Notes: generated from the letters alone by a model not told the origin. A stretch of 32,000 nt of DNA from Okeania sp. (GCF_035285525.1 NZ_JAYKGW010000162.1:1-32000), one strand, 5' to 3'. Counted from the stretch's first letter, positions 6,024-29,807 are shown. Program-made: numbers and translations.

Positions 6024-6411
6024 CGCGGGATAGAGCAGTCTGGTAGCTCGTCGGGCTCAAGTTATAAGGAAAGATAAACTAAAACCAAGCATAAACCAAG
6101 ACCGCTAGTCGGTTAGCTTGAATCTTTACCTTGTAAGGGGCGGCATATAGGGAAACTTATATGTGATTACTTGTCAAATTCGGGGAAGCCGTTAGCGGGG
6201 TAATCCCGAGCCAAGCTCCAAAATAAAATTGAGGAGAAGGTGTAGAGACTGGTTGGCAGGTACCCTAACAGTTATCTATTTTAATAGAAGCTGAGGGTAA
6301 AGGGACAGTCCAGACTACAAACTAATCTCTGATAGATTCAGAGTTAAGGCAGTGAAAGCTGTAGTAGTAAGCATAACCCGAAGGTCGGTGGTTCAAATCC
6401 GCCTCCCGCCA
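6024..6411 (+). tRNA. initiator tRNA-fMet (anticodon CAU) interrupted by a group I intron
   Basis: 5' half is CGCGGGATAGAGCAGTCTGGTAGCTCGTCGGGCT and 3' half is CATAACCCGAAGGTCGGTGGTTCAAATCCGCCTCCCGCCA. Initiator hallmarks are present: 1:72 mismatch (C:C) and a GGG/CCC anticodon stem. No CCA is encoded. Confidence 0.9.
6058..6371 (+). ncRNA. group I (IC3-like) self-splicing intron in the anticodon loop, with no ORF
   Basis: Core strings AATCCCGAGCCAAGC, GAAGGTGTAGAGACTGG..GGTACCCTAACAG, GAGGGTAAAGGGACAGTCCAGACTA and GGCAGTGAAAGCTG closely parallel the cyanobacterial/Azoarcus tRNA introns. The chosen boundaries give U before the 5' splice site and a terminal G; a CA dinucleotide is duplicated, so the boundary is ambiguous by up to 2 nt. 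Confidence 0.85.
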
Positions 6412-11665: not shown

Positions 11666-12862
11666 TTGGTTACAACTACAGAAAAAATTCAAACTCCAAC
11701 AAATTCTATATCTCCTATTCAAGACAGAGTAGCAGTTTTATTAATGGGATATGGAGAAGTAGAAAGTTATGAAGATTTTGCTAATTATAATGAACAAGCA
11801 TTAAACTTACTTACGGCTAAATTTGCTCCAGTTCCTACTTGGATATATCCTCCTTTAGCAAAATTATTAGCTATTTTTGATTTGCATGAATGGAGTCATC
11901 AACATGGTAACTTCATCTCTCCTCATAATGCTATTTTTGAAAGTCAAAGAGCAGGAATTGAAAAAAATCTCCAAGTAAAATGGGGCGATCGCGTCAAAGT
12001 ATTTAAAGCTTTTAACTTTTGCGCTCCCCACTTACCAGAACAAGTATTAACACAGATTAAATCTGAAGGATTTGATAAAATATTAATTTATCCTTTGTTA
12101 GTAGTTGACTCTATTTTCACCAGTGGAATAGCTGTTGAACAAGTTAATAAAGCATTAGTAAAATTAGCAGATCAAACCGAACATTGGGTTAAAGGTCAAC
12201 GTTATATTCCTTCTTTTTATAACGAACCTGATTATATTAATTTAACTGCAAAAATGGTAGAAGAACAAATTGCTAATGACTTAGCAGTTGCTCATTTACC
12301 ATCTCAAATTGGTATTGTTTTAACTAATCATGGTTGCCCCCATAAAGCCAAAGGTTTTACTTCTGGAATTGATGAAAGTCAGACACTTTATGAGTTAGTA
12401 AGAGAACGTTTAATTAATCGTTTTCCTCTAATTTCTGTAGGTTGGTTAAACCATGATACTCCAATGATTGAATGGACTCAACCAGATGCTAAAACTGCTG
12501 CGAAAAACTTGATAGAATTAGGTGCAACAGCTATTATTTTTATGCCTATTGGTTTTGCTACAGAAAACCATGAAACATTATTAGATGTAGAGCATATTAT
12601 TGAAGCTTTGCGTCAGAAACATCCGGAAGTAACTTATCGACAAATGCCTTGTGTAAATGACCGCTCAGAATTTGTGCAAATGGCTGCTGAATGGGCGAAT
12701 CCTTATATTGAGGAACTCTTAAGTGAAAATGCTTTGGCTATTAATCCTTCTTTGGCAGTAGCACAAGCAAAATCAAATCATGTTCATAGTCACGATCATG
12801 GTCATAGTCATTCTCATGGTCATCATCACCATCACGACGACCACGACCATCATCATCATTAG
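11666..12862 (+). CDS. ferrochelatase-family (class II chelatase) protein with a C-terminal His-rich tail
   Basis: 398-aa ORF with a TTG start preceded by AAGGAG (11654-11659). It has N-terminal VAVLLMGYGEVES.., NHGCPH and TENHETLLDVE (ferrochelatase-like D/N-H-x-ET). The tail is HVHSHDHGHSHSHGHHHHHDDHDHHHH. No CAB domain is present. Confidence 0.6.
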   Translation: MVTTTEKIQTPTNSISPIQDRVAVLLMGYGEVESYEDFANYNEQALNLLTAKFAPVPTWIYPPLAKLLAIFDLHEWSHQHGNFISPHNAIFESQRAGIEKNLQVKWGDRVKVFKAFNFCAPHLPEQVLTQIKSEGFDKILIYPLLVVDSIFTSGIAVEQVNKALVKLADQTEHWVKGQRYIPSFYNEPDYINLTAKMVEEQIANDLAVAHLPSQIGIVLTNHGCPHKAKGFTSGIDESQTLYELVRERLINRFPLISVGWLNHDTPMIEWTQPDAKTAAKNLIELGATAIIFMPIGFATENHETLLDVEHIIEALRQKHPEVTYRQMPCVNDRSEFVQMAAEWANPYIEELLSENALAINPSLAVAQAKSNHVHSHDHGHSHSHGHHHHHDDHDHHHH

Positions 12863-13648: not shown

Positions 13649-13691
13649 TGTAATCAATGATACAACACACTTCATTAAGTTTCTATAAATT
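13649..13691 (+). promoter_or_regulatory. candidate NtcA-type promoter upstream of the globin gene
   Basis: TGTA-ATCAATGA-TACA (13649-13664), then 22 nt after TAC, then TAAATT (13686-13691, fits TAN3T). About 70 nt upstream of the ATG at 13767. Confidence 0.3.
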
Positions 13692-13766: not shown

Positions 13767-14270
13767 ATGTCATCACCAGAGCAAACCCCTAAAAATACTG
13801 ATAATACAGACCAAGATAATAAAAAAACCGAATTACAAGTTGAACTATTGGAAAACAGTTTTGAGCAAGTTAAGCCCAGAGCTGATGAATTTACTAAAAG
13901 CTTCTACAATAACCTCTTTACCGACTACCCAGATGCCCAACCCCTGTTTACTAGCACTGATATGGCAGCCCAACATAAAAAATTATTAGGCTCTTTAATT
14001 TTGGTAGTTGAAAATCTCCGGAGACCAGATGTTTTAACCGATGCACTGGAAGGACTCGGAGCTAGACACGTCAAATATGGTGCTCTACCCGAACACTACC
14101 CGTTAGTTGGTAATTCTCTGTTAAAAACTTTCGAGCAATATTTAAAAGAAGATTGGACAGAAGAAGTGAAGCAAGCTTGGGTAGATGCTTATGGAGCAAT
14201 TACTGAGCTAATGTTAAAAGGAGCAGAAGGTGTTGATGTTAGTAAAGCAGAGCTTTCAGAGAAGAAATAA
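13767..14270 (+). CDS. single-domain 3/3 globin (flavohaemoglobin/Vitreoscilla-type globin domain)
   Basis: 167-aa ORF. SFYNNLFTDYPDAQPLF carries the B10 Tyr and CD Phe, AAQHKKLLGSL the E-helix Gln, and LGARHVKYGALPEHYPLVG the proximal His region. Confidence 0.85.
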   Translation: MSSPEQTPKNTDNTDQDNKKTELQVELLENSFEQVKPRADEFTKSFYNNLFTDYPDAQPLFTSTDMAAQHKKLLGSLILVVENLRRPDVLTDALEGLGARHVKYGALPEHYPLVGNSLLKTFEQYLKEDWTEEVKQAWVDAYGAITELMLKGAEGVDVSKAELSEKK

Positions 14271-14380: not shown

Positions 14381-14410
14381 ATGACTGATAACTAATAACT
14401 GATAACTGAA
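14381..14410 (+). repeat. heptameric STRR leader (CTGATAA/CTAATAA)n ending ATAACTGATAACTGAA before the ATG
   Basis: Read directly. No Shine-Dalgarno-like purine run lies between the tract and the ATG. Confidence 0.9.
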
Positions 14411-15046
14411 ATGACTGGTTTTTCTGACAACATTAAAAAAGCCCATTTATTCCAATTAAAAACATTAATAATTGGAATAATGGTACTTTTGGTACTTTGG
14501 TTTGCCGGAGCATTTATCCTCGACCAACGTCAAGCTTTTCTTCCCGGAAAAACTTCTGAAGGACATTTATTATTTGAAGTTTCCTGTAATTCCTGTCACG
14601 AAGGTTTTAAACCTGTGACAAATGAAGCTTGTATGCGCTGTCATCAACCAGAAATGGCTACAGACACTCATGGCGAGAAAAAGTTTCGCGACCCCCGTTG
14701 GGCAGAATTACTGAATAATATTGATGTATTGACCTGTACTGCTTGCCATCTAGAACATGTTCATATATTTGCCCGTGGAGTTAATCTCAAACCTGACTTG
14801 TGCATGAGCTGCCATGAGGGAGTAATTGCAGGAGATATTCCCAGTCACAAAGGTTTTGAACGTGATGGCTGTTGGACGGCAGGATGTCATAATTTCCATG
14901 ACCATCGTTCTATTTCGACGGGGTTTTTGGGGCAAAATTTGAATCAACCACGACTGTTACCGAAGCCAGAATTACCAATTTTGACTGTGACAGCTACTGT
15001 GGAAAAAGCTCCTCCACCAGATTTAAGTAAAGAGTTTTTGGAATGA
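14411..15046 (+). CDS. membrane-anchored pentahaem c-type cytochrome (cytochrome c3-like)
   Basis: 211-aa ORF with one N-terminal TM helix (LIIGIMVLLVLWFAGAFIL). Four CXXCH motifs (CNSCH, CMRCH, CTACH, CMSCH) plus one CX4CH (CWTAGCH). Confidence 0.85.
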   Translation: MTGFSDNIKKAHLFQLKTLIIGIMVLLVLWFAGAFILDQRQAFLPGKTSEGHLLFEVSCNSCHEGFKPVTNEACMRCHQPEMATDTHGEKKFRDPRWAELLNNIDVLTCTACHLEHVHIFARGVNLKPDLCMSCHEGVIAGDIPSHKGFERDGCWTAGCHNFHDHRSISTGFLGQNLNQPRLLPKPELPILTVTATVEKAPPPDLSKEFLE

Positions 15047-15864
15047 AGACAATTCAAAATACACGGCAGTCTCAGTTCAAAATACGCTTGTTTCCTCTGG
15101 TTGGTTTATTTGTTTGTTTTTGGGCGCTATTTTGTGTTACTTCTCCTGTCAGTGCTAGCTCAATTTCTCAACCACAACTTGAGGATATTAATCAACTTTG
15201 GCGGGGAAGTGCCCATGCTTTAGCTGATATAAATTGTTCTAGCTGTCACTTGGAAGAGAAAACTAAAAAATTGATAAGTCAACCAACTTATGAAAGTTGT
15301 CAAAGTTGCCATGAGTCAGAAGTAGAAACTTTTTTGTTTGGCAAACACGGTATTCGTCTGGGGGAAGGTTTGTCTCCTTTGACTCCAAAAATGGCAAGCC
15401 TACCAATGAAGGAATCAGCTTTGGGGAGGCAAATGAATTGTAATACTTGCCATGACGTTCATTCTGTTAACACTTATCAAGCTGCTGTTGATTCTTGTTT
15501 GACTTGTCACAATGATACCCATTCTCTGAGTTATCAAGACTCAAAGCATGGTCAACAATTTTTGGCAGCAGGAAGGTTGCCGAGACCTTCTGAGGAGTCG
15601 GTAACTTGTGCCAGTTGTCATTTACCTCGCCAACATCAAGAGATAGGTAAAAAAGTATTTGTTAATCATAATAATACTTACAATTTATTGCCTCGCGATC
15701 GCATGGTTGCCGATGTTTGTATGAATTGTCATGGGATGGAATATTCCTATAATAGCATCTTCGATAATGAATTAGTGGAAGGCAATTTTAATCGCCAACC
15801 TAACCAAGATTTAGAAACCTTAAAACTAATTAGGGAATTTGAGAAAAAGCGATTAGGCAATTAA
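15043..15864 (+). CDS. secreted hexahaem c-type cytochrome
   Basis: 273-aa ORF whose ATG overlaps the upstream TGA (ATGA, 4-nt overlap). Signal peptide ends ..VTSPVSA-SS. Six CXXCH motifs (CSSCH, CQSCH, CNTCH, CLTCH, CASCH, CMNCH). Confidence 0.85.
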   Translation: MKTIQNTRQSQFKIRLFPLVGLFVCFWALFCVTSPVSASSISQPQLEDINQLWRGSAHALADINCSSCHLEEKTKKLISQPTYESCQSCHESEVETFLFGKHGIRLGEGLSPLTPKMASLPMKESALGRQMNCNTCHDVHSVNTYQAAVDSCLTCHNDTHSLSYQDSKHGQQFLAAGRLPRPSEESVTCASCHLPRQHQEIGKKVFVNHNNTYNLLPRDRMVADVCMNCHGMEYSYNSIFDNELVEGNFNRQPNQDLETLKLIREFEKKRLGN

Positions 15865-16374
15865 TAATTAATAATTAATAATTAATCCCTAGAGGTTTTA
15901 AGTTTTTTGACCAATAGACATCTCGAAAAATAAAAGTTAAAATCAATTACTGGGGAGAAATCATTAATTCTTTCCTCCGTAAGGACGTTGCATACAACGT
16001 TCTTACTCTCTCTTAGATAATTCAGGAGTTACGCAACTGCAACGTATTTTCGTTTGATACGACCGTCGGGAAGCAATCTCAAACCCTTATTTTTCCTACC
16101 TCATAGCTTTAGTCCTATAATTGATAATTATTGCTCTGCTAATTCAACCTCAAAGCATCTACAGATAAAAGTTTGAGCAATTAATAGTCATTTTTAAGGG
16201 GTGCATCTCAGACATATTAAATTATCAACCTCTCCAAGATTTAGAAATACTGCACTTTCTGTTGCTAGTTAGATACAAAGCTAACAAGCAAGATGCTTGT
16301 GTTAGAAAAATTCGGTTGTGGTGTACAAGTAGTGATTTTTACAATTAGACTTCTAACAATGAAAAAGGTTGATT

Positions 16375-16418
16375 TGTAAATACTGCTACATCTACAGGAC
16401 TACCAAAAGTTTTATCAT
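16375..16418 (+). promoter_or_regulatory. candidate NtcA-type promoter upstream of the Tll0287-like gene
   Basis: TGTA-AATACTGC-TACA (16375-16390), then 23 nt after TAC, then TATCAT (16413-16418, fits TAN3T). About 100 nt upstream of the ATG at 16516. Confidence 0.3.
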
Positions 16419-16515
16419 TTCAACTTGTACATCATTAGTCTGAAATAGGCTCTATTTTTCATTGTTCATTATTAATTAATTGTGTAAATTATAAATAAAT
16501 TAGGAGAATGTAACT

Positions 16516-17154
16516 ATGAATTTCTTCAAGCGTTTCCAAGGACGAACTTTAGTATTATTTACTTTAGCAGTAACTATTTGTTTCACAGCAATTGCTTGCG
16601 GTGGTGGTGGTGGTTCTCAAACTCAAGCTAGCATTGGTATTCCCCCTGAATTGGTAGTTGATTATATCCATTCTGTAGCTGAAGCTGACAGAACTGCTTA
16701 TACCAAGCACGTTGTTAACCGTCTCAAAACTTTGGAAGGAAAACCTAAAGAAGCTGGAGTTGTTCCTGCGGAAGCAACGGAAGCTTGGCAACAAGCAAAT
16801 GGTGTTCCTTTACCAGCACAAATGTTCCGTTTGGGAGCAGAGTTAGCTTCAGAAAAAGGAACCTTTACTTACGGGTTGATTTCTCCTTGGAATATTAATG
16901 ATAGTCAAGCTCCTAAAGGTGAATTTGAAAGTGCAGGAATGCAGCAAGTTGTAGATACTGGTGAACCTTATAAAGCAGAGCGAGAAATTGCCGGTCAAAA
17001 ATATTATTCGGCTATTTATCCTGATAAAGCTATTGCTGAAGCTTGTGTTACTTGCCATAATGAACACCCTATTCATAAAGAACGTTATCCTGACAAAGTG
17101 TTTAAGTTAAACGATGTTATGGGTGGTGTGGTAATTAATTTACCTTTGACTTAA
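16516..17154 (+). CDS. Tll0287-like (DUF3365) c-type haem protein, probable lipoprotein
   Basis: 212-aa ORF with SD AGGAG 9 nt upstream. Signal peptide has a lipobox-like TAIA-C followed by a Gly-rich linker. The C-terminal ACVTCHNEHP is the signature single haem-c site of this family. Confidence 0.75.
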   Translation: MNFFKRFQGRTLVLFTLAVTICFTAIACGGGGGSQTQASIGIPPELVVDYIHSVAEADRTAYTKHVVNRLKTLEGKPKEAGVVPAEATEAWQQANGVPLPAQMFRLGAELASEKGTFTYGLISPWNINDSQAPKGEFESAGMQQVVDTGEPYKAEREIAGQKYYSAIYPDKAIAEACVTCHNEHPIHKERYPDKVFKLNDVMGGVVINLPLT

Positions 17155-17740: not shown

Positions 17741-18352
17741 ATGAAACCAAAATTTAGTACATTAATTGTGTTAACAATTATCACAATTGGACTATTACTG
17801 CCCTTTGTTTTTAGTCCGGTTTATATACCGATGATGAGAGAAACACATTTCGATATTTTACAGATTTTACAAGGGGAAATTTATAAACAAATAACTGGAT
17901 ATTTATCCCTAATATTTGTCATATTAGAAATGGTATTAACTGCTAGAAAAAGAGGTAGGACTTGGAAATTTAAAATGAAAATTCCCGGTTCAATTCAATT
18001 CTGGCGTATCCTACATATTTTTCTGGGAGTAGGGCTTTTAGGCACAACTGTAATTCATACAATTGGAGCGCAAGGATTAAATTTTAATGCAGTTTTTCTC
18101 TGGGTATTTTTTGGTGTTACTTTATCTGCACTTGTGGGGGTAGTTGCTGAAACTGGTTTTTTAGAATCTCCTATAAAGTTTTTCCGTTTTGCTTGGCAAA
18201 GTGCTAATTCTACAAGTGAAATTCCTGGAATTTCTAAAGGTAAATTAATTATAAATATGCGCTTAATTTGGCTAAATACTCATATTTTTTTAGTTAGTGT
18301 ATTTTGCGTGATGTTGATTTTTCATATTTTTATCGCTTACTTTTATCAGTAA
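17741..18352 (+). CDS. His-rich polytopic membrane protein (possible b-type cytochrome / DUF4405-like)
   Basis: The ORF track starts at TTG 17711 inside a CT repeat, so ATG 17741 (MKPKFSTLIVL..) is preferred. It has 4-5 hydrophobic helices. His residues sit in or near helices (RILHIFLGV..TTVIHTIG, NTHIFLVSVFCVMLIFHIF). Confidence 0.5.
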   Translation: MKPKFSTLIVLTIITIGLLLPFVFSPVYIPMMRETHFDILQILQGEIYKQITGYLSLIFVILEMVLTARKRGRTWKFKMKIPGSIQFWRILHIFLGVGLLGTTVIHTIGAQGLNFNAVFLWVFFGVTLSALVGVVAETGFLESPIKFFRFAWQSANSTSEIPGISKGKLIINMRLIWLNTHIFLVSVFCVMLIFHIFIAYFYQ

Positions 18353-18595: not shown

Positions 18596-18949
18596 ATGGG
18601 TAGTCATCGAGAACAATATATATGGAAACGTGGAGTTAAAGTTGCTATTAATTGCTACAAAATAACTCAAACTTTTCCTCGTTCTGAACTTTACGGTTTA
18701 ACCAGTCAAATTCGGCGTAGTTGTGTTTCAGTTCCATCAAATATTGCTGAAGGATATGGCAGAACAAGTAAAGCTGAATATATACGTTTTCTCAGAATTG
18801 CTCTTGGTTCTCTCAGAGAATTAGATACCCAATTAATTATTGCTAAAGCAGTAAAATTAGCCAAACCAGAACAGTTTATTTCTATCATAAAAGAAGTTGA
18901 TGAACTACAACGTCTTATCATAGCTACTATTAACAAACTAGAGAAATAA
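18596..18949 (+). CDS. four-helix-bundle protein (23S rRNA intervening-sequence protein family)
   Basis: 117-aa ORF with the ..LTSQIRRSCVSVPSNIAEGYGR.. and ..FLRIALGSLRELDTQL.. signatures. Confidence 0.85.
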   Translation: MGSHREQYIWKRGVKVAINCYKITQTFPRSELYGLTSQIRRSCVSVPSNIAEGYGRTSKAEYIRFLRIALGSLRELDTQLIIAKAVKLAKPEQFISIIKEVDELQRLIIATINKLEK

Positions 18950-19048: not shown

Positions 19049-19170
19049 ACTTTCTTCTGTCTATCTTCCACCTTATTAACTTCTTCCTTCTTCCTTCCAC
19101 CTTATTAACTTCCACCTTATTAACTTCTTCCCTCTTCCTTCTTCCTTCTTCCTTCTTCCCTCTTCCTTCC
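19049..19170 (+). repeat. polypyrimidine tract / (CTTCCTT)n STRR with three CCACCTTATTAACTT units
   Basis: The stretch 19124-19170 is 47 nt of pure C/T. It ends 9 nt before the ATG at 19180. Confidence 0.9.
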
Positions 19171-19179
19171 TAAAAAAAC

Positions 19180-19659
19180 ATGAACAATATTCGATTGTAT
19201 TTGGGTATATTAATAATACCGTTATTCCTATTAGTAACTATATTCATAACTCATAGGGATGTTTCGCCAAATACTGGTATTCCTCTGACTGGATTAGCTA
19301 CAATGAGGTCTATGGCAAAACAATCTATTCCCTATGAAATTGCTATGAATAATCATAAACCTAGTTTAATTGAATTTTATGCTGATTGGTGTACTATTTG
19401 TCAATCTCTTGCTCCTAGTTTAAAAAATTTGCATCAACAATACGGTGAAAATATTAATTTTGTAATGCTGAATATTGACAATCCAATCTGGAGTAAAGTA
19501 ATTAAAACTTATGGAGCTAATAGCGTTCCTTATTTAGTATTTTTAACACCTGAAAAAGAAGTCAAAGAAGTATTAGTAGGGAAACCTCCAGAAAGAATTA
19601 TTGAACAAATTATTATGTCTGGAAAAGTAAGCTATCAGCTATCAGCTATCAGCTATTAG
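19180..19659 (+). CDS. membrane-anchored thioredoxin-like protein (TxlA / HCF164-type thiol:disulfide oxidoreductase)
   Basis: 159-aa ORF with an N-terminal TM helix and the thioredoxin motif EFYADWCTICQSLAP (WCxxC). The last 9 codons are encoded by a (CAGCTAT)n repeat. Confidence 0.75.
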   Translation: MNNIRLYLGILIIPLFLLVTIFITHRDVSPNTGIPLTGLATMRSMAKQSIPYEIAMNNHKPSLIEFYADWCTICQSLAPSLKNLHQQYGENINFVMLNIDNPIWSKVIKTYGANSVPYLVFLTPEKEVKEVLVGKPPERIIEQIIMSGKVSYQLSAISY

Positions 19660-19873
19660 CTTTGAGTTATTGAGTTAATTATAAAACCAAAAAAGCAATT
19701 AGTCTTTAACAGTAAGCATTTAGCAGTCAGCAGTCAGCTATCAGCTTTGAGTTATTGACTTAATTATAAAAGCAAAAAAACAATTAGTCTCTAAAAGAAA
19801 TACTGAATGCTAATAGCTGAATGTTTATCTTAAAAGTGTGGGTATAATGAATATTTTTTGTTTAGTAAATAAA

Positions 19874-20437
19874 ATGCAAAAAATAAAAACGCCGAGACAA
19901 CGTTTGTGGACGGTTGAAGAATATTACAGAATAGCTGAAACAGGTATTTTAGACCCAAGCGAACGAGTAGAATTAATAGAAGGAAAAATTATGAGAATGG
20001 CAGCAAAAAGTATGGCTCATGTAATTGCTGGTAGGCGATCGCGTGATTTATTAGAAGCACGTTTGGGGGAACGAGTTTTAGTTTGGACTCAAGACCCAAT
20101 TTGCTTAGATGACTATTCGGAACCAGAGCCAGATATTGCTTTAATAATACCACCTTTGGAACGGTATCGGTATTCCCATCCAACTACTTCTGATATTTAT
20201 TTAATCATAGAAATAGCAGATACAACTATTAACAATGATTGCCGAGACAAAAGTAAAATTTATGCTCGTTCTGGTGTAGCAGATTATTGGGTTTTAGATG
20301 TTGTTGTGCGTCAATTACATGTTTTTCGAGAGCCTACAAAAGATAGTTATAAAAAGGAATCTATTTTCTCTGAAAATGAAATGGTTTCTTTATTAGCATT
20401 TCCTGATGTAAATTTGGTAGTGGAAGAAATGTTATAG
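19874..20437 (+). CDS. Uma2-family (DUF820) endonuclease-like protein
   Basis: WTVEEYYRIAETGIL..RVELIEGKI..M, EPDIALI, LIIEIADTT...D...K..IYARSGVADYWVLD. The start is uncertain: the track gives GTG 19838, and ATGs at 19847 and 19874 are alternatives. Confidence 0.8.
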   Translation: MQKIKTPRQRLWTVEEYYRIAETGILDPSERVELIEGKIMRMAAKSMAHVIAGRRSRDLLEARLGERVLVWTQDPICLDDYSEPEPDIALIIPPLERYRYSHPTTSDIYLIIEIADTTINNDCRDKSKIYARSGVADYWVLDVVVRQLHVFREPTKDSYKKESIFSENEMVSLLAFPDVNLVVEEML

Positions 20438-20815: not shown

Positions 20816-22240
20816 ATGAACATAACTAATTTTATGAAATTTATCGGCTCTATTAAAATGGCTATTCCTCTATTATCTGCCATTTCTATTATCTTAATTG
20901 GAGCAACATTTTATGAATCTCAAGTTGGTTCAAATATCGTGCAAAACGAAGTTTATAAAAGTCTTTGGTTTGGCATATTAATGTTTTTATTAGCCGTAAA
21001 TTTAGGGGTATCTGCTATGTCTCGTTACCCTTGGCGCGGGGCAAGAAAAATTGGCTTTGCCCTGACTCATTTTGGCTTAATTATTATTATTGCTGGTTCT
21101 GCTGCGGTGATTCATTTAGGCGTTGAAGGAATGTTGTTAGTTAGAACCGATGCTCCAGGAAGTAATTTGATTAGAGTTGAAGGAGATTTATTAGAAGTAA
21201 TACCTCCAAATCAAGAGTTTGAACAAACAGATATTTTCATTAATTCTAATAGTTCTATATATCCTAATTCTGTGGCAGGAATTTCGGTTTTAGGATACAG
21301 TGAAAATGCGATTAAAACTGTTAGCTTTACTGAAGGTACAACGGCTAATAATCCAGCAGTGCTTCTCAGTTTAAATAGTAATCGGATGGGGCAAAAATTA
21401 GAACGTTGGTTAGCGATCGCTCCGACAGGTTATAATCAAATTTCACTAGGTCCAGCGCAGTTAGAAATTGTCTCTGTTGGCAATGAATCTGATTTAGATT
21501 CTCTGCTATCTTTTGCAGGGGAAACTATTAGCGATCGCCAAGAAAATATAAAGTTTGTAGCTAATAATGAGTCAACAAATTTAGATTACTTTAAAGTTAT
21601 TGTTACAGATTCAGGAAAACTTTATTTTGCTGCTAATTCTTCTCAAGGTTTTAAGTCGGGAAGTTGGGAACTAGGCGAATCTATTACTCCTGGTTGGGCA
21701 GATTTTCAGATCACCTTAGAAAAGTTTATTCCCCACGGCAAAATTCAACAAGAAGTTACGCCAATATCTAATCTTATGGGAACAGGAAATCCTGCTTTAT
21801 TAGTAGAAACTCCTGGTGGAAAAAAATCATGGTTATCTTGGGGAGAACCGACAGTTATTGAAGATAAAATGGGGGAATGGTTAGCAGCTTTTAGTCCGAA
21901 ATTTTTGGAGTTACCTTTTGCTATTAAATTAGAAGATTTTATTGTAGAACGTAATGAAGGTTCCGATAGTGTGGCGATGTGGACTAGCAAAATTAGACTA
22001 GAGGATTTCCATGAAGGATTGGTAAGCGATCGCGATGTTTGGATGAATCATCCTACTTGGTATAAAGGTTGGAAAATTGCTCAAGCTTCTTGGAACCCTG
22101 GAGATTTAAACCAATCTACTTTACAAGTTAAGCGAGAACCTGCTTGGGTAACGGCTTTAACTTGGACGGGTTCTGGTTTATTAGTATTAGGAATAGGTAC
22201 TATGTTTTATGGTCCGATAATTGCTAATAAAATAAGGTGA
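20816..22240 (+). CDS. resB: ResB/Ccs1-family cytochrome c biogenesis protein (System II)
   Basis: 474-aa ORF. It has an N-terminal TM pair (MAIPLLSAISIILIGATFYES.., YPW..RKIGFALTHFGLIIIIAG), a large soluble domain, and C-terminal VWMNHPTWYKGWKIAQASW plus a final TM helix. Confidence 0.8.
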   Translation: MNITNFMKFIGSIKMAIPLLSAISIILIGATFYESQVGSNIVQNEVYKSLWFGILMFLLAVNLGVSAMSRYPWRGARKIGFALTHFGLIIIIAGSAAVIHLGVEGMLLVRTDAPGSNLIRVEGDLLEVIPPNQEFEQTDIFINSNSSIYPNSVAGISVLGYSENAIKTVSFTEGTTANNPAVLLSLNSNRMGQKLERWLAIAPTGYNQISLGPAQLEIVSVGNESDLDSLLSFAGETISDRQENIKFVANNESTNLDYFKVIVTDSGKLYFAANSSQGFKSGSWELGESITPGWADFQITLEKFIPHGKIQQEVTPISNLMGTGNPALLVETPGGKKSWLSWGEPTVIEDKMGEWLAAFSPKFLELPFAIKLEDFIVERNEGSDSVAMWTSKIRLEDFHEGLVSDRDVWMNHPTWYKGWKIAQASWNPGDLNQSTLQVKREPAWVTALTWTGSGLLVLGIGTMFYGPIIANKIR

Positions 22241-22310
22241 CACAAGCATCTTGCTTGTTGGGTAACACAAGCATCTTGCTTGTTCTGTAACACAAGCATC
22301 TTGCTTGTTC
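22237..22310. repeat. 3 tandem copies of a ~25-nt hairpin unit GTAACACAAGCATCTTGCTTGTT
   Basis: Read directly. ACAAGCA/TGCTTGT form the stem. The first copy overlaps the resB stop codon. Confidence 0.9.
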
Positions 22311-22322
22311 ACCAATACATAT

Positions 22323-22466
22323 AAAATACAGCCTAGAAGGCTGTGTTACATTAGAAAAATACAGCCTAGAAGGCCGTGTTACATTAGAAAAATACAGCCT
22401 AGAAGGCTGTGTTACATGAGGGACAGGAAAAGACAGCCTAGAAGGCTGTGTTACATTAGAAAAAAG
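22323..22466. repeat. 4 copies of a 32-nt hairpin unit AAAATACAGCCTAGAAGGCTGTGTTACATTAG
   Basis: Read directly. ACAGCC/GGCTGT form the stem. The fourth copy follows a ~10-nt irregular spacer. The array ends 2 nt before the ATG at 22469. Confidence 0.9.
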
Positions 22467-22468
22467 CA

Positions 22469-23065
22469 ATGTCTTACAGTAAATTTACTTTAGAAGAAGT
22501 TTTAACTAAATTCAATTTAACTTTAGTTGAAAACGTAGGTAAATTTAACAATTTACCAGAAGTAACTCCTAGCAAATTATTAGCAGAAACTTTAGAAGAT
22601 AATATACCATTAGCAGTAGCAGTTGCTACAGAAAAAGCTCGTTCCGAATTAATAATATCGCCAATTTTAGTGGCAGTTAGAAAATATTTAGATAAACAAA
22701 TTAGTTTATTTTCTGGAATAGAATTTAATGTTAATCTTGAGTTAGAATTAAGGGGTTATTGCGATTTTATTATTAGTCTTTCTAGTCTACAAAGTATAAT
22801 TCAAGCACCAGTAATTGTTTTAGTAGAAGCGAAAAATGATAATATAAAATCAGGTTTCGGTCAATGTTTGGCAGAAATGGTTGCTGCTCAAATTTTTAAC
22901 CAAGATAAAGGTAATCAAATTTCTAAAATCTATGGAGCTATTACTACTGGAACTACTTGGCAATTTTTAGAACTAGAAGGTAAAAATGCAGTATTAGATT
23001 TAGAGGAATATTCTGTTAAAAATTTACCAAAACTTTTAGGAATTTTAATTGATTTTTTATCGTAG
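22469..23065 (+). CDS. PD-(D/E)XK nuclease-fold-like conserved cyanobacterial protein
   Basis: 198-aa ORF. GYCDFII ... VIVLVEAKND ... GQCLAEMVAAQ fits a D...E-x-K...Q catalytic pattern. The function is inferred from the motif only. Confidence 0.5.
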   Translation: MSYSKFTLEEVLTKFNLTLVENVGKFNNLPEVTPSKLLAETLEDNIPLAVAVATEKARSELIISPILVAVRKYLDKQISLFSGIEFNVNLELELRGYCDFIISLSSLQSIIQAPVIVLVEAKNDNIKSGFGQCLAEMVAAQIFNQDKGNQISKIYGAITTGTTWQFLELEGKNAVLDLEEYSVKNLPKLLGILIDFLS

Positions 23066-23186: not shown

Positions 23187-23294
23187 TTTTATCGTAGGGG
23201 TTTGGTCTCCAAACTGAAGAGAATAGCAGATGTTGTCAAATTTTATCGTAGGGGTTTGGTCTCCAAACCGAAGAGAATATCAGATGTTGTCAAA
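23187..23294. repeat. 54-bp tandem duplication (2 copies, 2 mismatches); the first copy lies inside a duplicate of the last 45 nt of the preceding ORF
   Basis: 23021-23074 is identical by eye to 23153-23206. Units TTTTATCGTAGGGGTTTGGTCTCCAAAC.GAAGAGAATA.CAGATGTTGTCAAA are at 23187-23240 and 23241-23294. Confidence 0.85.
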
Positions 23295-23348
23295 TTTTGT
23301 TTTTTTATATAATATTTATCAAAAACTTTTTTATAAGGAGAAACTTCA

Positions 23349-23609
23349 ATGATTAATCTATCTTTAACATCAGAATTAGAAAGCTTTATTAATTCGGCGG
23401 TGAAACGTGGCCGATATTCTTCTGCTGAAGAAATGGTTAGCACACCGTTGCAACTGCTTCAAGAAAAAGAGTTAGAACGAACTATGCGACTTGAAGAGTT
23501 GAGAAAAGAAATAGCGGTGGGTATTGCAGATAGTGATAGGGGTGATGTTTTTGATGGAGAAGAAGTAATAAAAGAATTGTGCGAAGAAATTAAGCAAGGG
23601 TGTATCTAA
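23349..23609 (+). CDS. parD: ParD-family (CC2985-type) type II antitoxin, apparently without a partner toxin
   Basis: 86-aa ORF. MINLSLTSELESFINSAVKRGRYSSAEEMV..LL...LRKEIAVGIADSDRGDV matches the ParD/antidote pattern. Confidence 0.7.
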   Translation: MINLSLTSELESFINSAVKRGRYSSAEEMVSTPLQLLQEKELERTMRLEELRKEIAVGIADSDRGDVFDGEEVIKELCEEIKQGCI

Positions 23610-23842: not shown

Positions 23843-25657
23843 ATGAAAATAATTAATTTTATCATCGGACTTTTTCTAGGAATCCTAATAATTTCAATTC
23901 CTTTTAATCAATTTCAATCTTCTACTCTTGAACCTTTACAAACTTTAGCAGTTCAATTCGATGGTAGAAAAAAACCACTAGACACAGTAGCTAGAGAAAC
24001 TGTTGCTCAAATTCACGGTAAACTTAATTATCAAACTACTAATAAAGAAGATTTAGATTATCTCCAAATTTATCTTTCTCTCTGGTTTAATAATCGTGAT
24101 TGGAACGAAGAACCTTTTATTCTATTTAGTTATCGTCCTCTGAAAGAAAAAGTCGGACTTAACCCCGAACAAAAATACTTCTCTTTTGTGGAATTAATGG
24201 AATCAAAATTAGGTTCTTTTGTTCTTGCAACTAGAGAAAAACAAAATAATGAACAAGACTTAAATAGAGACGAACGAGAAGCATTAGCTCTAGAAGAAAG
24301 ATTAGCTTTGATGATAGATACAGTCGGACAAAATACTCTACCTTTAATTCCTCATCCCACAGATATTAAAGGAACTTGGGTAAGTATTAATCGAGGTTCT
24401 GAATATTATCAACCTAATCAAATTGAACCATTATTAACAACTTACACCAATCTCAAACAAACCTATAAAATTCATCCTGAACAATTATCAATTTTGGGAG
24501 AAATTTCCCAAAAACTACAAACTCAACTCCGTAATTTAAGTAACAATATTTATCCCACATCTGCAACCTTAAAACAAGAAGTTAATTTTTATAAATTACA
24601 TCCATTTAGAAAAGCATGGATATTGTACACATTCGCCTTTTCCTTGATGTTAATAATTCTCCTATTTCCAAGTTTTACAGAAGTTACTCAGAAACCCGGT
24701 TTATCAATCAAATCTCCTGATTTAAAAAATAATCACGACAATAAACCCGGTTTCTTAATTGGTTTACGTTTTAACCTTTATTGGCTGATAATAGGAACCT
24801 TTATTTCCGGTTTATTAATTCAAACTTATGGCTTTTGGGAAAGAATGCAAATTGCCGGCAGACCTCCAGTTACCAATATGTATGAATCAGTAATTTGGGT
24901 AGGATTTGGCATCGCAGCGATCGCTCTTTTATTTGAACTAATTTATCGAGCCAAATATTATCTCCTAGCTGCTGCTCCATTATCAATTTTTTGCCTTCTT
25001 TTAGCAGATAATTTACCAGCAGTTCTCGACCCCAGTATTAAACCATTAGTTCCAGTTTTACGAGACAATTTCTGGTTAAGTATTCACGTTCCTACTATTA
25101 CTTTAAGTTATGCCAGTTTTGCTCTGGCATTTGGATTAGGGCATATACTTTTAGGCAATTATCTATTTACTCCCCAATCAAAACCAAGAATTAAAAGTTT
25201 GGCAAAATGGAATTATGGAGTCTTACAAACAGGAGTATTATTATTAGCAACTGGCATAATTTTAGGTGGTATTTGGGCACACTTTTCCTGGGGTCGTTTC
25301 TGGGGTTGGGACCCGAAAGAAACCTGGGCATTAATTGCTTTAATGTGTTATATTATTCCTCTGCATGGAAGATTAATTGGTTGGCTCAAAGATTTTGGTT
25401 TAACTGTTACCAGTGTCTTGAGTTTTAATGCAGTTTTAATGGCTTGGTATGGGGTAAACTTTGTTCTCGGAACAGGATTACATAGTTACGGTTTTAGTAC
25501 CGGAGGTTCAGAACTTATTGTTGGCAGTTTTGTCGCTTTTGATTTACTATTATTGTTAATAGTTTTCCTTCGCCATCGAAGTTCGTTGAGTGCTGAACAG
25601 ACTTTACCTCCAGAAGAAAAAACCACTACTTTTGTAGAAACATCAAACCAAATTTAA
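23843..25657 (+). CDS. ccsA: long-form CcsA/ResC cytochrome c biogenesis protein (System II haem-handling subunit)
   Basis: 604-aa ORF with the Trp-rich WWD motif GGIWAHFSWGRFWGWDPKETWAL and conserved His residues in flanking TM helices. About 250 aa of extra N-terminal soluble domain includes FDGRKKPLDTVARE. Confidence 0.85.
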   Translation: MKIINFIIGLFLGILIISIPFNQFQSSTLEPLQTLAVQFDGRKKPLDTVARETVAQIHGKLNYQTTNKEDLDYLQIYLSLWFNNRDWNEEPFILFSYRPLKEKVGLNPEQKYFSFVELMESKLGSFVLATREKQNNEQDLNRDEREALALEERLALMIDTVGQNTLPLIPHPTDIKGTWVSINRGSEYYQPNQIEPLLTTYTNLKQTYKIHPEQLSILGEISQKLQTQLRNLSNNIYPTSATLKQEVNFYKLHPFRKAWILYTFAFSLMLIILLFPSFTEVTQKPGLSIKSPDLKNNHDNKPGFLIGLRFNLYWLIIGTFISGLLIQTYGFWERMQIAGRPPVTNMYESVIWVGFGIAAIALLFELIYRAKYYLLAAAPLSIFCLLLADNLPAVLDPSIKPLVPVLRDNFWLSIHVPTITLSYASFALAFGLGHILLGNYLFTPQSKPRIKSLAKWNYGVLQTGVLLLATGIILGGIWAHFSWGRFWGWDPKETWALIALMCYIIPLHGRLIGWLKDFGLTVTSVLSFNAVLMAWYGVNFVLGTGLHSYGFSTGGSELIVGSFVAFDLLLLLIVFLRHRSSLSAEQTLPPEEKTTTFVETSNQI

Positions 25658-25811: not shown

Positions 25812-25894
25812 ACTGATAACTAATAACTAATAACTGATAACTGATAGCTGATAGCTGATAACTGATAACTAATAACTAATAACTGATAACTGAA
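25812..25894 (+). repeat. 83-nt heptameric STRR (CTGATAA / CTAATAA / CTGATAG)n running up to the ATG
   Basis: About 12 heptamers, ending ATAACTGATAACTGAA immediately before ATG 25895. Confidence 0.95.
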
Positions 25895-26353
25895 ATGGAA
25901 CGTCGTACTTTTTTAAATTGGGTAGGAGTCGGAATGTTAAGCAGTTTTATTCCTGTGGCAATAGCTGCTTGTCAATCCACTCAAACTAATAATTCTCCAG
26001 CAAATAAAACAGCAACAAAAATTGATACTTCTATTCGAGAAGATGGATTTCAAGCATTAGGAACTGTAGAACAATTAGAAACTGAAGGGGAAATTATTGA
26101 TAGAAGAAATGCCGCAAAACCAGTGATAATTTTTCGTAACCCAGATACTAATGATTTAGTAGCAATTAATCCTATGTGTACTCATCAAGGTTGTACTGTA
26201 AAATTGGATTTAGAAGGAAAACAATTAGCTTGTCCTTGTCATGGTTCTAAATTTGCCTTTGATGGTAAAGTTATGAATCCTCCTGCTACGGAAAATTTAG
26301 ATATTTTTGCTGTTAAACAAGAAGATAATTTACTGTTAGTAAAAGTGAATTAA
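25895..26353 (+). CDS. small Rieske [2Fe-2S] protein with a Tat signal and lipobox (PetC3-like)
   Basis: 152-aa ORF with the twin-arginine motif ERRTFLNWVG, lipobox AIAA-C, and cluster ligands CTHQGC and CPCHGS. Confidence 0.8.
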   Translation: MERRTFLNWVGVGMLSSFIPVAIAACQSTQTNNSPANKTATKIDTSIREDGFQALGTVEQLETEGEIIDRRNAAKPVIIFRNPDTNDLVAINPMCTHQGCTVKLDLEGKQLACPCHGSKFAFDGKVMNPPATENLDIFAVKQEDNLLLVKVN

Positions 26354-29600: not shown

Positions 29601-29807
29601 ACCAAAAGCGGTCTGCATATCCGTAGCGAAATCCAGCTCCAAAAGAAAATCTGCCAATTCATCCCGGACTGTACCCCAAGCATCGTGGATAAGGGGTTCA
29701 ATAGTGTCCGGTTCCAGGGATGCACCCATGAAATACTCAATTTCTGGGAGAAGCTCGTCCGTTTCTACCGGGAAACTTATTTGGTTGTCCGGTAGAAGGT
29801 TGTCCAT
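26631..29807 (-). CDS. large FG-GAP/VCBS beta-propeller + 3x Calx-beta + C-terminal PPC-domain protein
   Basis: 1058-aa ORF. Seven DFNxDGxxDLAV..N....VSVLLGxGDGSF repeats occupy about aa 270-605. Three ~105-aa Calx-beta-like units (ISISD.TVTEGN....F.V.L......V.V.Y.T.DG.A..G.DY....G...F.PG...K...) follow. The C-terminus is pre-peptidase-like (DYFRFEV..PGVYYLEV). The acidic N-terminus has no obvious signal peptide. Confidence 0.85.
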   Translation of the reverse strand: MDNLLPDNQISFPVETDELLPEIEYFMGASLEPDTIEPLIHDAWGTVRDELADFLLELDFATDMQTAFGQEVDVAAGKEDIINILTGESLPGIRVLPTANMYPAVGAYDALTGTVYLADSLLDGSFGVDNGLLQDVLLEETGHFLDGLLHEEDSPGDEGALFSRLVKGEELSEPEVLEFLDEDDWVEVVDVVEVVEVVEVEVLPSWYEGDAVEFSYWRNVFQGDYEVETRGWNDVFGGDVIRVEASQGVDFEEVGRFEVGDLPESVTEGDFNRDGLVDLAVANLRDDNVSVLLGTGDGNFASATNFGVGAGDGPWAVIEGNFNGDGLTDLAVVGGNKVSLLFGKGDGSFVLSTNNFNVQFDPSSSAGGDFNGDDSTDLAMVNSTSDRVSVLLGTGDGSFGTATYFRVGDFPEEVALEDFNGDGFTDLAVVNRYSDNVSVLLGKGDGSFGTATYFSVGEKPYSIAQGDFNRDGIPDLVAGNIGSWPDGGLDDSVSVLLGKGDGGFRPATNFDVGGDRPFSLAVEDLNRDGIPDLVAANSGDDNVSVLQGKGDGSFGAATNFDVGGFPRSVAVQDFNEDGLPDLAVANGGSDDVSVLINTTPITVTPKITISDTNITEGNTNKTANFPVTLDNPSNQIITVEYTTINETAKVNQDYKLTKGTLTFQPGETQQTIPVTILGDKRDENNETFKLALSRPQNAELQDKQAIGTIVDNDAPPKISISDATVTEGNRGKKKMEFEVKLNNPSDKTVKVNYTTVDGSAKSGQDYQKKNGVLTFKPGEKEKKVSISVLGDNKDENNEKFEVKLSRAKNAKLSDKKAVGTIRDNDETVIIPEVIIGDAKVTEGNSGKKNMKFEVKLSEATQEIVEVNYVTVDGSAKSGQDYEKVSGVVKFKPGQKKKVVSVPVLGDTRDENNEQFEVKLSRAKNAKLVDGKAVGIIRDNDEPKPEPFPDVIDLGVLTSKQISVRDEIGFTIGGVDRDTEDYFRFEVEEEGFVSIFVDGFVQDLGIKLYDEVESLISQSNVDGLGLEFIENVLEPGVYYLEVFPVGGGRSRYNLNINIV

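Follow-up and report, generated by a model that had tools for sequence, protein, structure and literature searches.

The DNA analysed here, called the window below, is a stretch of 32,000 nucleotides (nt) from Okeania sp. (GCF_035285525.1, NZ_JAYKGW010000162.1:1-32000). It carries two overlapping open reading frames, ORF1 and ORF2, which are predicted to encode multihaem c-type cytochromes and which belong to a set of ten gene families recurring together in cyanobacteria, referred to below as the module. Comparison of the two genes and of their neighbours with other genomes indicates that the pair derives from a single undecahaem cytochrome c gene that was split in two, and suggests that the products of the module form a transmembrane electron conduit.

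The cytochrome gene pair and its fused relatives

The two genes were located as follows (aa, amino acids):

14411-15046, + strand: ORF1, 211 aa, with haems 1-5 of the putative split undecahaem cytochrome c and an N-terminal membrane helix
15043-15864, + strand: ORF2, 273 aa, with haems 6-11 of the same cytochrome and its own Sec signal peptide

The stop codon of ORF1 and the start codon of ORF2 overlap in the 4 nt ATGA. ORF1 contains five haem-binding motifs (CNSCH, CMRCH, CTACH, CMSCH and CWTAGCH), the last one with the spacing CX4CH, and all 10 of its cysteines are located within them. ORF2 contains six motifs (CSSCH, CQSCH, CNTCH, CLTCH, CASCH and CMNCH), which account for 12 of its 14 cysteines, the remaining two being in the signal peptide, so that the mature proteins have no cysteine outside the haem motifs. 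The N-terminus of ORF1 shows a basic stretch followed by 20 hydrophobic residues (18-37), and reads as a signal anchor, an AGA site at residues 32-34 leaving cleavage possible. The N-terminus of ORF2 is a typical Sec signal ending in VSA-SS. No CXXCK motif was found in the ORFs of the window, in their 85 cyanobacterial homologues or in the 70 family representatives listed. The first-pass annotation of the window, made from the sequence alone, had described the same ORF positions, motifs, ATGA overlap, VSA-SS signal and absence of CXXCK, and all of these agree with the sequence. Also, its view of the pair as two multihaem c-type cytochromes, one anchored and one secreted, fits the motifs and the N-termini.

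The haem-motif pattern is not a chance one, since it is conserved across homologues. Four CXXCH and one CX4CH were present in all 85 ORF1 homologues examined, which makes the CX4CH site highlighted by the first-pass annotation a real and conserved feature, and six CXXCH were present in 81 of the 85 ORF2 homologues, the four with fewer motifs being presumably cut at contig ends. The 4-nt overlap is kept in 71 of the 85 loci, in agreement with the translational coupling proposed earlier. Hundreds of proteins 60-80% identical to the window pair are present in databases, annotated merely as 'cytochrome c3 family', 'doubled CXXCH' or 'hypothetical'. Their hosts include Moorena, Symploca, Caldora, Roseofilum, Coleofasciculus, Spirulina, Pleurocapsa, Xenococcus, Geitlerinema BBD, Prochloron and Thalassoporum PCC 7367. 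A scan of GTDB, with one genome per species, detected relatives in 210 genomes, and the best 80 of these 210 are all cyanobacteria, mostly marine benthic or mat-forming. The occurrence of the pair in a cyanobacterium, which had been singled out in the first-pass annotation, is thus true, but the pair is not rare there.

Heptamer tandem repeats (ACTGATA x11.7, AATTAAT x4, CTTCTTC x12.6 and AGCTATC x4.6) were observed at gene boundaries of the island that holds the pair, at positions 14381-14410, 15859-15886, 19065-19169, 19630-19661 and 25812-25893. One of these repeats abuts the start of ORF1 and another lies directly 3' of the ORF2 stop.

When the ORF1 profile was searched against 1.84 billion representative proteins, 459 relatives were retrieved, 38 of them at E<=1e-30. 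The cyanobacterial ORF1s form practically a single 50% cluster. Outside it, the relatives are for the most part single proteins of 380-520 aa, in which the motifs follow the order four CXXCH, one CX4CH, six CXXCH; the fifth site was a plain CXXCH, not CX4CH, in 12 of 150 representatives. Concatenated ORF1 and ORF2 are colinear, end to end, with 49 fused 11-haem representatives. In the joint alignment, ORF1 corresponds to the N-terminal half and ORF2 to the C-terminal half of the fused proteins, and the last residues of ORF1 together with the signal peptide of ORF2 form an insertion relative to the fused forms. Sequence comparison thus gives good support for an ancestral undecahaem cytochrome c of which ORF1 and ORF2 represent the two halves. 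As this cytochrome is a single polypeptide outside cyanobacteria, the two proteins are best regarded as two halves of one chain and not as an electron donor with its enzyme, and the gene split would explain why the translational coupling has been conserved.

Relatives of about 200 aa were also encountered outside cyanobacteria, but they do not establish an independent split: most are on contigs only about 1-1.6 kb long or lack a contig record, and are probably contig-end fragments. In one metagenomic relative (L089, 8001-10496), the undecahaem cytochrome is fused behind an MFS transporter with 12 transmembrane helices, in a protein of 831 aa. This transporter domain is not a NarK, its closest relatives being aromatic-acid and sialate symporters. 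All nine unfused cytochromes read from other bacteria have hydrophobic N-termini.

The 22 cysteines and 11 histidines of the motifs are invariant in the joint alignment, and exactly eleven further histidines are invariant too, five in ORF1 (H52, H87, H116, H146 and H163, candidates for the distal ligands) and six outside the motifs of ORF2 (H58, H102, H140, H160, H169 and H209). Eleven such histidines for eleven haems leave no haem with an open coordination site for catalysis. All eleven haems thus appear to be bis-His ligated, a pattern which points to an electron wire, not an enzyme. That the motifs are occupied by haem is probable, on the indirect basis of motif invariance and of the maturation genes located nearby.

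No curated family covers the pair, which agrees with the lack of a recognizable signature reported in the first-pass annotation. The Pfam matches are limited to generic c3, paired-CXXCH and MtrC-domain models: Cytochrom_c3_2 passes its cut-off (32.7 and 42.5 bits vs 25), and PF02085, the true class III model, is reached by ORF2 only and falls below its own (20.3 vs 22.9). The best NCBIfam match of both ORFs is a DmsE decahaem model, with 26 and 47 bits, far under the cut-off of 192.

The ten-family module

The module was defined from the contexts of Thalassoporum PCC 7367 and Spirulina major and then compared across 84 related loci. Exactly ten families are recurrent, and no other family recurs. 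In all 35 full loci, five of them follow a constant order, namely globin, ORF1, ORF2, a Tll0287-like protein and a membrane protein of about 205 aa. Five more families, thioredoxin, ResB-like, CcsA-like, Rieske and pentapeptide-repeat proteins, are present in 23-29 of the 35. The window holds all ten, at 13767, 14411, 15043, 16516, 17741, 19180, 20816, 23843, 25895 and 30702. Besides ORF1 and ORF2, the members are:

13767-14270, + strand: single-domain 3/3 globin of the flavohaemoglobin/VHb/Cgb type, predicted cytoplasmic, first gene of the operon (Pfam Globin, 4.6e-19)
16516-17154, + strand: Tll0287-like lipoprotein (DUF3365, haem-Cache; PF11845, 9.7e-17, 62.2 bits vs a cut-off of 24.1)
17741-18352, + strand: putative di-haem-b-type membrane protein with about five transmembrane helices, assigned by its histidine pattern (longest ORF from 17711, database start 17741)
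19180-19659, + strand: membrane-anchored thioredoxin (WCTIC), a ResA/CcsX-like candidate apocytochrome reductant (Pfam Thioredoxin, 4.4e-17)
20816-22240, + strand: divergent ResB/Ccs1-like System II maturation protein (Pfam ResB, 3.3e-14, 53 bits, passes the cut-off)
23843-25657, + strand: divergent CcsA-like haem lyase/exporter (Pfam Cytochrom_C_asm, 1.7e-30, 106.7 bits, passes the cut-off)
25895-26353, + strand: predicted Tat-exported Rieske [2Fe-2S] lipoprotein of the PetC3 type (Pfam Rieske, 1.1e-13)
30702-31622, + strand: pentapeptide-repeat protein, the tenth family (Pfam Pentapeptide, 7.6e-45; 44% identical to the member at locus L001)

The best solved relatives of the globin are Methylacidiphilum HGbI (3S1I, 4e-24), VHb, Cgb and the flavohaemoglobins. 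A C-terminal hydrophobic tail was found in 61 of 83 loci and a tandem globin in 38; the window copy has neither. The tandem globins (L023, L032, L051, L063, L073, L083 and others) present up to 5 proximal-His motifs per ORF, with a Pro/Glu/Ser-rich linker and a C-terminal transmembrane tail, and such a tail-anchored tandem globin is itself unusual.

In the Tll0287-like protein, the lipobox Cys28 and residues C177, C180 and H181 are conserved, the CXXCH motif is invariant and there is no further cysteine. The Cys/His axial ligation of the Tll0287 type is thus impossible in the window protein. No PDB sequence, 5B82 included, was matched by it in a phmmer search at E<=0.01. It has been reported that a Cys-less haem-Cache domain binds nitric oxide (NO) about as tightly as H-NOX does (preprint, 10.64898/2026.02.01.703092).

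The membrane protein carries two pairs of histidines, H102/H116 and H191/H205 (numbered from 17711), each pair 14 residues apart and invariant in 76 sequences. The pairs sit in two helices predicted by AlphaFold2 (AF2), with a predicted local distance difference test score (pLDDT) of 70. Such a pattern is characteristic of a pair of b haems, one above the other in the membrane, and the protein is on this ground a predicted di-haem cytochrome b. Among its homologues, 33 of 36 weakly match DUF4405 and 26 of 36 match Ni_hydr_CYTB, with E values around 1e-4 or weaker; the window protein itself has no family match, and no PDB sequence was matched in a profile search.

The closest solved relative of the Rieske protein is 5CXM (3e-17), which we take to be PetC3 of Synechocystis. 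It ranks ahead of all b6f and bc1 subunits, those of b6f being matched at 4.5e-10 or weaker. An RR motif, the lipobox Cys26 and the sequence CTHxGC...CPCHG are conserved, and the PetC equivalog model gives 60 bits vs a cut-off of 250. The gene is present in 23-24 of the 35 full loci, and in most loci it lies directly 3' of CcsA.

The thioredoxin gene was found in 29 of the 35 full loci, with an invariant CXXC, the ResB-like gene in 28 and the CcsA-like gene in 27. The idea, present in the first-pass annotation, that the ResB and CcsA of the island belong with the cytochrome pair is thus strengthened by the comparison of gene sets across loci. The CcsA-like protein scores 152.9 bits with TIGR03144, under the cut-off of 187.6 and over residues 321-550 only, and the ResB-like protein has no NCBIfam match. 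Cyanobacteria universally need CcsBA for cytochrome f. Because of this general need and of the divergence of both proteins, we infer that thioredoxin, ResB and CcsA make up a dedicated second maturation set beside the housekeeping one. A substrate with 11 haems and a CX4CH site would be beyond the housekeeping System II, which serves monohaem cytochromes. The CcsA-like protein measures 604 aa in the window and 570-590 aa in other carriers. Its N-terminal extension of about 320 aa (23843-24800) has no family match, and may adapt the lyase to multihaem or CX4CH substrates.

The pentapeptide-repeat gene is present in 29 of the 35 full loci. In the window, a gene for a surface protein of 1058 aa with FG-GAP, Calx-beta and PPC domains (26631-29807, - strand) lies between the Rieske and pentapeptide genes, which are mostly adjacent elsewhere. 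Other insertions (18596-18949, 19838-20437, 22236-23065 and 23187-23609) are foreign to the islands of other genomes. The inserted material includes a 23S-rRNA-IVP/bAvd-like gene, a Uma2 endonuclease-like gene, tandem repeats of 25, 33 and 54 nt, and ORFs of 198 and 86 aa. The 23S-IVP, Uma2 and 198-aa genes were considered as members of the module and rejected, being present in only 0-3 of the 35 full loci. Likewise, a ferrochelatase/CbiX-like gene just upstream of the haem-protein island (11666-12862, + strand) was rejected as a haem-supply member, since it co-occurs in one locus of 35. Its product bears a C-terminal His-rich tail, HSHDHGHSHSHGHHHHHDDHDHHHH, scores under the HemH equivalog cut-off and may be a metal chelatase of other specificity.

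Farther upstream, an intron-containing tRNA gene was detected at 6024-6411 (+ strand), with a group I intron core at 6122-6333 (Rfam, 65.5 bits). The intron mode of ARAGORN gives a tRNA-Leu(CAA) with an intron of 314 nt, and its default mode gives no tRNA. By eye, the 3' exon resembles the 3' half of an initiator tRNA; a matching 5' half was not found. No Rfam match was obtained inside the island.

Gene contexts in other bacteria and NtcA-type boxes

Ten distinct non-cyanobacterial contexts were read, among them a Thermoanaerobaculia and a Pseudomonadota metagenome-assembled genome. A Tll0287-like gene lies directly 3' of the cytochrome gene in all ten, and every copy is without the axial cysteine. 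The b-type homologue is also present in all ten, every copy having two histidine pairs with the spacing of 14. It is free-standing in two contexts. In the eight others, it forms the C-terminal part, of about 180 aa, of a flavoprotein of 640-877 aa, and this fused flavoprotein is encoded immediately upstream of the cytochrome. The flavoprotein part corresponds to the N-terminal half of NirB (FAD/NAD(P)H and BFD [2Fe-2S] domains; TIGR02374 positions 1-468), with one exception (L092, 125-2758), in which a protein of 877 aa combines two cyclic nucleotide (cNMP)-binding domains, a BFD [2Fe-2S] domain, a flavohaemoglobin-type FNR and the di-haem-b domain. The domain set of this exception implies a cyclic-nucleotide control of electron input. 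The fusion of the b haems with a flavoprotein fixes the direction of flow in these bacteria: the putative path, legible from the domains, runs from NAD(P)H through FAD, [2Fe-2S], two haems b and 11 haems c to the haem-Cache protein.

Globin genes follow the module in five of the ten contexts, in one case with a truncated globin, which is of a different family. In that case (L095, 11085-11834), a monohaem cytochrome c and a truncated (2/2) globin replace the 3/3 globin, 3' of the Tll0287-like gene, and the truncated globin appears to have been recruited independently. One cluster (L086) is flanked by nirBD/nasA on one side and by nrt-like transporter genes on the other, and has an ANTAR regulator nearby. 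An ANTAR response regulator was found in a second context as well, and HNOB/V4R genes adjoin the module in two (L085 and L090).

The link to a nas context led us to look for sites of NtcA at the cyanobacterial loci. The consensus of these sites is GTAN8TAC, which in the canonical activated arrangement stands about 22 nt 5' of a TAN3T -10 box. The window contains such an arrangement:

13650-13663, + strand: candidate NtcA-type promoter, with the box GTAATCAATGATAC, a spacing of 22 nt and TAAATT at 13686-13691, about 75-115 nt 5' of the globin start

GTAN8TAC was present within -350 to +60 of the globin start at 50 of 76 cyanobacterial loci, with 4.5 +/- 2.3 expected from 200 dinucleotide shuffles (maximum 11). 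The other intergenic regions of these loci served as a control, and 8% of them carry a site. The sites upstream of the globin represent 43 distinct 14-mers. The motif was also found upstream of ResB in 41%, and upstream of internal genes at the background level (0-13%). The full pattern, GTAN8TAC-N21-23-TAN3T, was present at 19 of 77 loci. The window alone is not enriched in GTAN8TAC (9 sites vs 5.8 expected), and the significance comes from the cross-locus test only. These data point to an apparent control of the module by NtcA.

In addition, the spacer between ORF2 and the Tll0287-like gene (15865-16515) measures about 650 bp in the window, whereas its length in the majority of the other genomes is roughly 20-150 bp. 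A terminator-like hairpin with a 12-bp stem (15979-16006) and two further GTAN8TAC boxes (16329-16342 and 16376-16389) lie within it. The Okeania operon may have been cut at this spacer into two nitrogen-regulated units. Promoter and terminator scans of the island gave nothing above chance.

Proposed function and closest known systems

We propose that the module encodes a nitrogen-regulated transmembrane electron conduit, probably for the handling of NO or of another N-oxide, a reading to which we give about an even chance. We regard the architecture as well supported, and infer the chemistry. According to this proposal, the ancestral cytochrome gene was split in cyanobacteria, the downstream half gained a signal peptide, and the ATGA overlap keeps the halves co-produced. 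The product would be an electron wire about 10 nm long, held at the membrane by the N-terminal helix of ORF1. On the cytoplasmic side would stand the globin, tail-anchored to the membrane in most cyanobacteria, and in the membrane the small protein with its two transmembrane-stacked b haems, serving as the electron entry point. The outer part would comprise the 11 c haems and the Cys-less Tll0287-like haem-Cache lipoprotein, to which cyanobacteria add the PetC3-like Rieske lipoprotein, and the thioredoxin/ResB/CcsA set would mature the c haems. The task of the whole would be to deal with NO or a related N-oxide arising during nitrate or nitrite assimilation, with the globin active in the cytoplasm, the haem-Cache protein active on the outer side, and a single b-haem hub supplying both, under the control of NtcA. 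For cyanobacteria, the direction of flow is presumptive, as is the compartment concerned (periplasm or thylakoid lumen).

The NO or N-oxide reading is based on the presence of globins from two families, on an NAD(P)H module similar to that of NirB or Hmp and on the nas/nir/nrt, ANTAR and H-NOX neighbours. It is also based on the NtcA boxes, on the NO binding reported for Cys-less haem-Cache domains and on an experimentally established case in Bradyrhizobium, where a nas operon encodes a single-domain globin and a flavoprotein which together remove the NO produced by nitrate assimilation (PMC4724949).

A number of observations weigh against the proposal. Nitrate-assimilation genes are present in only two of the ten non-cyanobacterial contexts, and the need for an 11-haem wire in NO handling has no explanation. 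The NtcA boxes are consensus matches, counted at loci which are phylogenetically related. With respect to the direction of flow in cyanobacteria, no flavoprotein was found within 10 kb at any of the 85 cyanobacterial loci, where the electrons may come from plastoquinol, ferredoxin or another source. The stand-alone haem-Cache protein examined in the preprint, of the Cys/His type, behaved as a redox protein and not as a binder of NO, though it has the axial cysteine (10.64898/2026.02.01.703092). As for the structures, a Foldseek search of the b-type AF2 model against the PDB returned only noise (connexins, E>0.6), and the AF2 model of ORF2, from an alignment of 21 sequences, reached a pLDDT of 45, so that the b fold and the wire geometry are both putative.

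The same elements can be extended to a hitherto unrecognised device of the respiratory type, conserved across phyla. In such a device, one di-haem-b hub would reduce both the cytoplasmic globin, acting as NO dioxygenase, and, via the 11-haem wire, the Cys-less haem-Cache protein outside, which would scavenge or reduce NO or another N-oxide. The cyanobacteria would have lost the NAD(P)H module, split the cytochrome gene, and acquired their own haem-attachment machinery and an NtcA switch. For mat-formers, it would be a defence against, or a use of, N-oxides from nitrate assimilation or from neighbouring denitrifiers. In this complete form, we regard the scheme as less likely than not.

Electron export was considered as an alternative, with a conduit resembling NOX/FRE that would reduce metals or sulfur in the periplasm or outside the cell and so serve dark anaerobic respiration (on S0 or Fe(III)) or reductive iron uptake in mat cyanobacteria. 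The carriers are indeed mostly marine benthic or mat genera (Moorena, Symploca, Coleofasciculus, Roseofilum, Geitlerinema BBD, Pleurocapsa and Spirulina), an anchored 11-haem wire with all-bis-His ligation is typical electron-export hardware, and the logic of a flavoprotein joined to a di-haem b resembles that of ferric reductases. However, there is no outer-membrane porin or cytochrome among the ten conserved families, and the upstream boxes are of the NtcA type, unlike what iron control would predict. TonB-dependent receptor genes near the module in two contexts (L093 and L094) would fit iron uptake, but such receptors are common chance neighbours. Also, export leaves the recurrent globin, HNOB and nas neighbours unexplained, and we consider it unlikely.

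A flow in the inward direction was also envisaged, in which a donor in the periplasm or lumen would supply electrons to the wire and the Rieske protein, and these would pass them via the b haems to plastoquinone or to the globin, acting as terminal NO dioxygenase or O2 reductase. This would fit the lack of the NAD(P)H module at the cyanobacterial loci, and the addition by cyanobacteria of a Rieske lipoprotein and of a globin tail anchor. Furthermore, cytochromes b of the Ni_hydr_CYTB type, to which the match here is weak, usually reduce quinone from a periplasmic partner. Nevertheless, the module contains no candidate for a donor-oxidising enzyme, the homologous systems of other bacteria are built for outward flow, and a Rieske centre normally has too high a potential to reduce bis-His c haems. 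We therefore regard inward flow as quite improbable.

The first-pass annotation had compared the pair with NrfH/NrfA, NapC/NapB and CymA-type systems. On that reading, ORF1 would be a quinol dehydrogenase of the NapC/NrfH/CymA kind and ORF2 its soluble catalytic or shuttle partner, acting on nitrite, hydroxylamine, NO, sulfite or tetrathionate. The anchored-plus-soluble layout fits this comparison, ORF2 has weak similarity to HAO-like proteins and NrfA, and some relatives are even named 'NrfA' in databases. However, in Pfam ORF1 had no match to Cytochrom_NNT (NapC/NirT) at E<=1. The NrfH model TIGR03153 misses ORF1 and gives ORF2 13.9 bits vs a cut-off of 134.2, and the NrfA models give 15-17 bits vs cut-offs of 595-692. 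A profile search of ORF1 against PDB sequences, NrfH among them, was empty, and the similarities of the ORF2 profile to HAO-like 6H5L (2e-7), MtrA 6R2Q and NrfA span just 40-140 residues round the haem motifs. NapC/NirT proteins are expected to have four haems, and their haem 1 is not bis-His ligated, with Met or Lys/Asp ligation at the quinol site, in contrast to the five haem motifs and five invariant non-motif histidines of ORF1. The gene split removes a donor/enzyme reading of the pair, there is neither a CXXCK nor a haem left without distal histidine, and the conserved membrane partner is a separate b-type protein. The comparison thus finds no support, and such an enzyme pair is very improbable, although nitrite, hydroxylamine and NO may be near the truth as substrates for the module as a whole, if not for ORF1 and ORF2 themselves.

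Finally, a signalling function, with the haem-Cache protein sensing NO or redox state outside and the haem chain relaying to the globin or another effector, would be in line with the report that roughly half of all Tll0287-like domains serve as inputs of sensors (preprint, 10.64898/2026.02.01.703092) and with HNOB/V4R, Ser/Thr kinase and roadblock genes near the module in L085 and L090, but it has hardly any chance of being correct, as no output domain (kinase, GGDEF, MCP or DNA-binding) is found among the conserved families, and thirteen haems with an NAD(P)H flavoprotein are hardware for sustained electron flux.

A full-text literature search found no description of this cluster. The single parts are all of known kinds, and the whole would be a transmembrane electron conduit; the way in which they are combined, the joining of the N-terminal half of NirB to a cytochrome b, the cyanobacterial split and the apparent NtcA control all appear to be undescribed. 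With at least 13 predicted haems, a Rieske centre, a globin and its own maturation genes, and with a presence in over 200 species genomes, the module appears unnamed and unstudied. Model cyanobacteria are without it, and the cyanobacterial electron-transfer literature that was searched is silent on it. The fusion of a NirB half with a di-haem b is apparently new, and outlines a route for electrons, from NAD(P)H into the periplasm, that can be tested directly. The module would also provide a physiological partner, and a route to function, for orphans such as the Tll0287 family and the PetC3-type Rieske proteins, and gives a hint about the reductant that single-domain globins lack. Should the proposed connection with N-oxides be correct, the module bears on the way in which benthic and diazotrophic mat cyanobacteria cope with NO. 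Should it export electrons to metals or sulfur instead, it would provide a first candidate, at the molecular level, for the anaerobic reductions that mat cyanobacteria have long been known to carry out in the dark. Moreover, the putative dedicated CcsBA set is a natural tool for the expression of multihaem proteins in cyanobacteria.

Among known systems, UetJ of Tenderiales, compared by description, is also an 11-haem wire encoded beside its own CcsAB genes. However, it is predicted to be extracellular, has 11 CXXCH, and is accompanied by a porin, trihaem c7 proteins and a cupredoxin; its cluster has no haem-Cache, b-type or globin partners and is thus a different gene set. The MtrA/DmsE wires and the cytochrome c3 of Desulfovibrio share the all-bis-His ligation predicted here, and c3 has the CX4CH spacing as well. 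The module differs from MtrA/DmsE by the absence of a porin partner, by its inner-membrane anchor and by another haem count and order. The NapC/NirT proteins (NrfH, CymA and NapC) resemble the pair in that a small anchored multihaem c stands beside a soluble one, but ORF1 has five haem motifs instead of four with no quinol-site signature identified, and ORF2 is without CXXCK or a predicted open haem.

Tll0287 of T. elongatus and PetC3 of Synechocystis represent the same domain families as two of the neighbours, and are cyanobacterial extracytoplasmic redox proteins of the lipoprotein type. The CbcL-type systems of Geobacter, compared by description, combine a di-haem b similar to HydC/Ni_hydr_CYTB with a periplasmic multihaem c anchored in the inner membrane. 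CbcL, a quinol oxidase, carries its 9 c haems on a single chain, whereas in the module the b protein is separate or fused to a flavoprotein, the 11 haems include a CX4CH site and haem-Cache is an obligate neighbour.

NOX/FRE and MsrQ likewise comprise a cytoplasmic NAD(P)H flavin part, two stacked b haems on two histidine pairs in two parallel helices and an acceptor outside. There is no detectable homology with them. The flavin part of the module is N-terminal and of the NirB/Hmp type, and the acceptor is a multihaem wire. The narK-bjgb-flp-nasC system of Bradyrhizobium resembles the module in its single-domain globin of the flavohaemoglobin type, its NAD(P)H flavoprotein similar to the N-terminal half of NirB and its nitrogen control, and the nas/nir/nrt/ANTAR surroundings of L086 are of the kind found there. 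All of the Bradyrhizobium system is in the cytoplasm, whereas the flavoprotein of the module has a di-haem-b domain which would feed 11 c haems and a haem-Cache protein outside.

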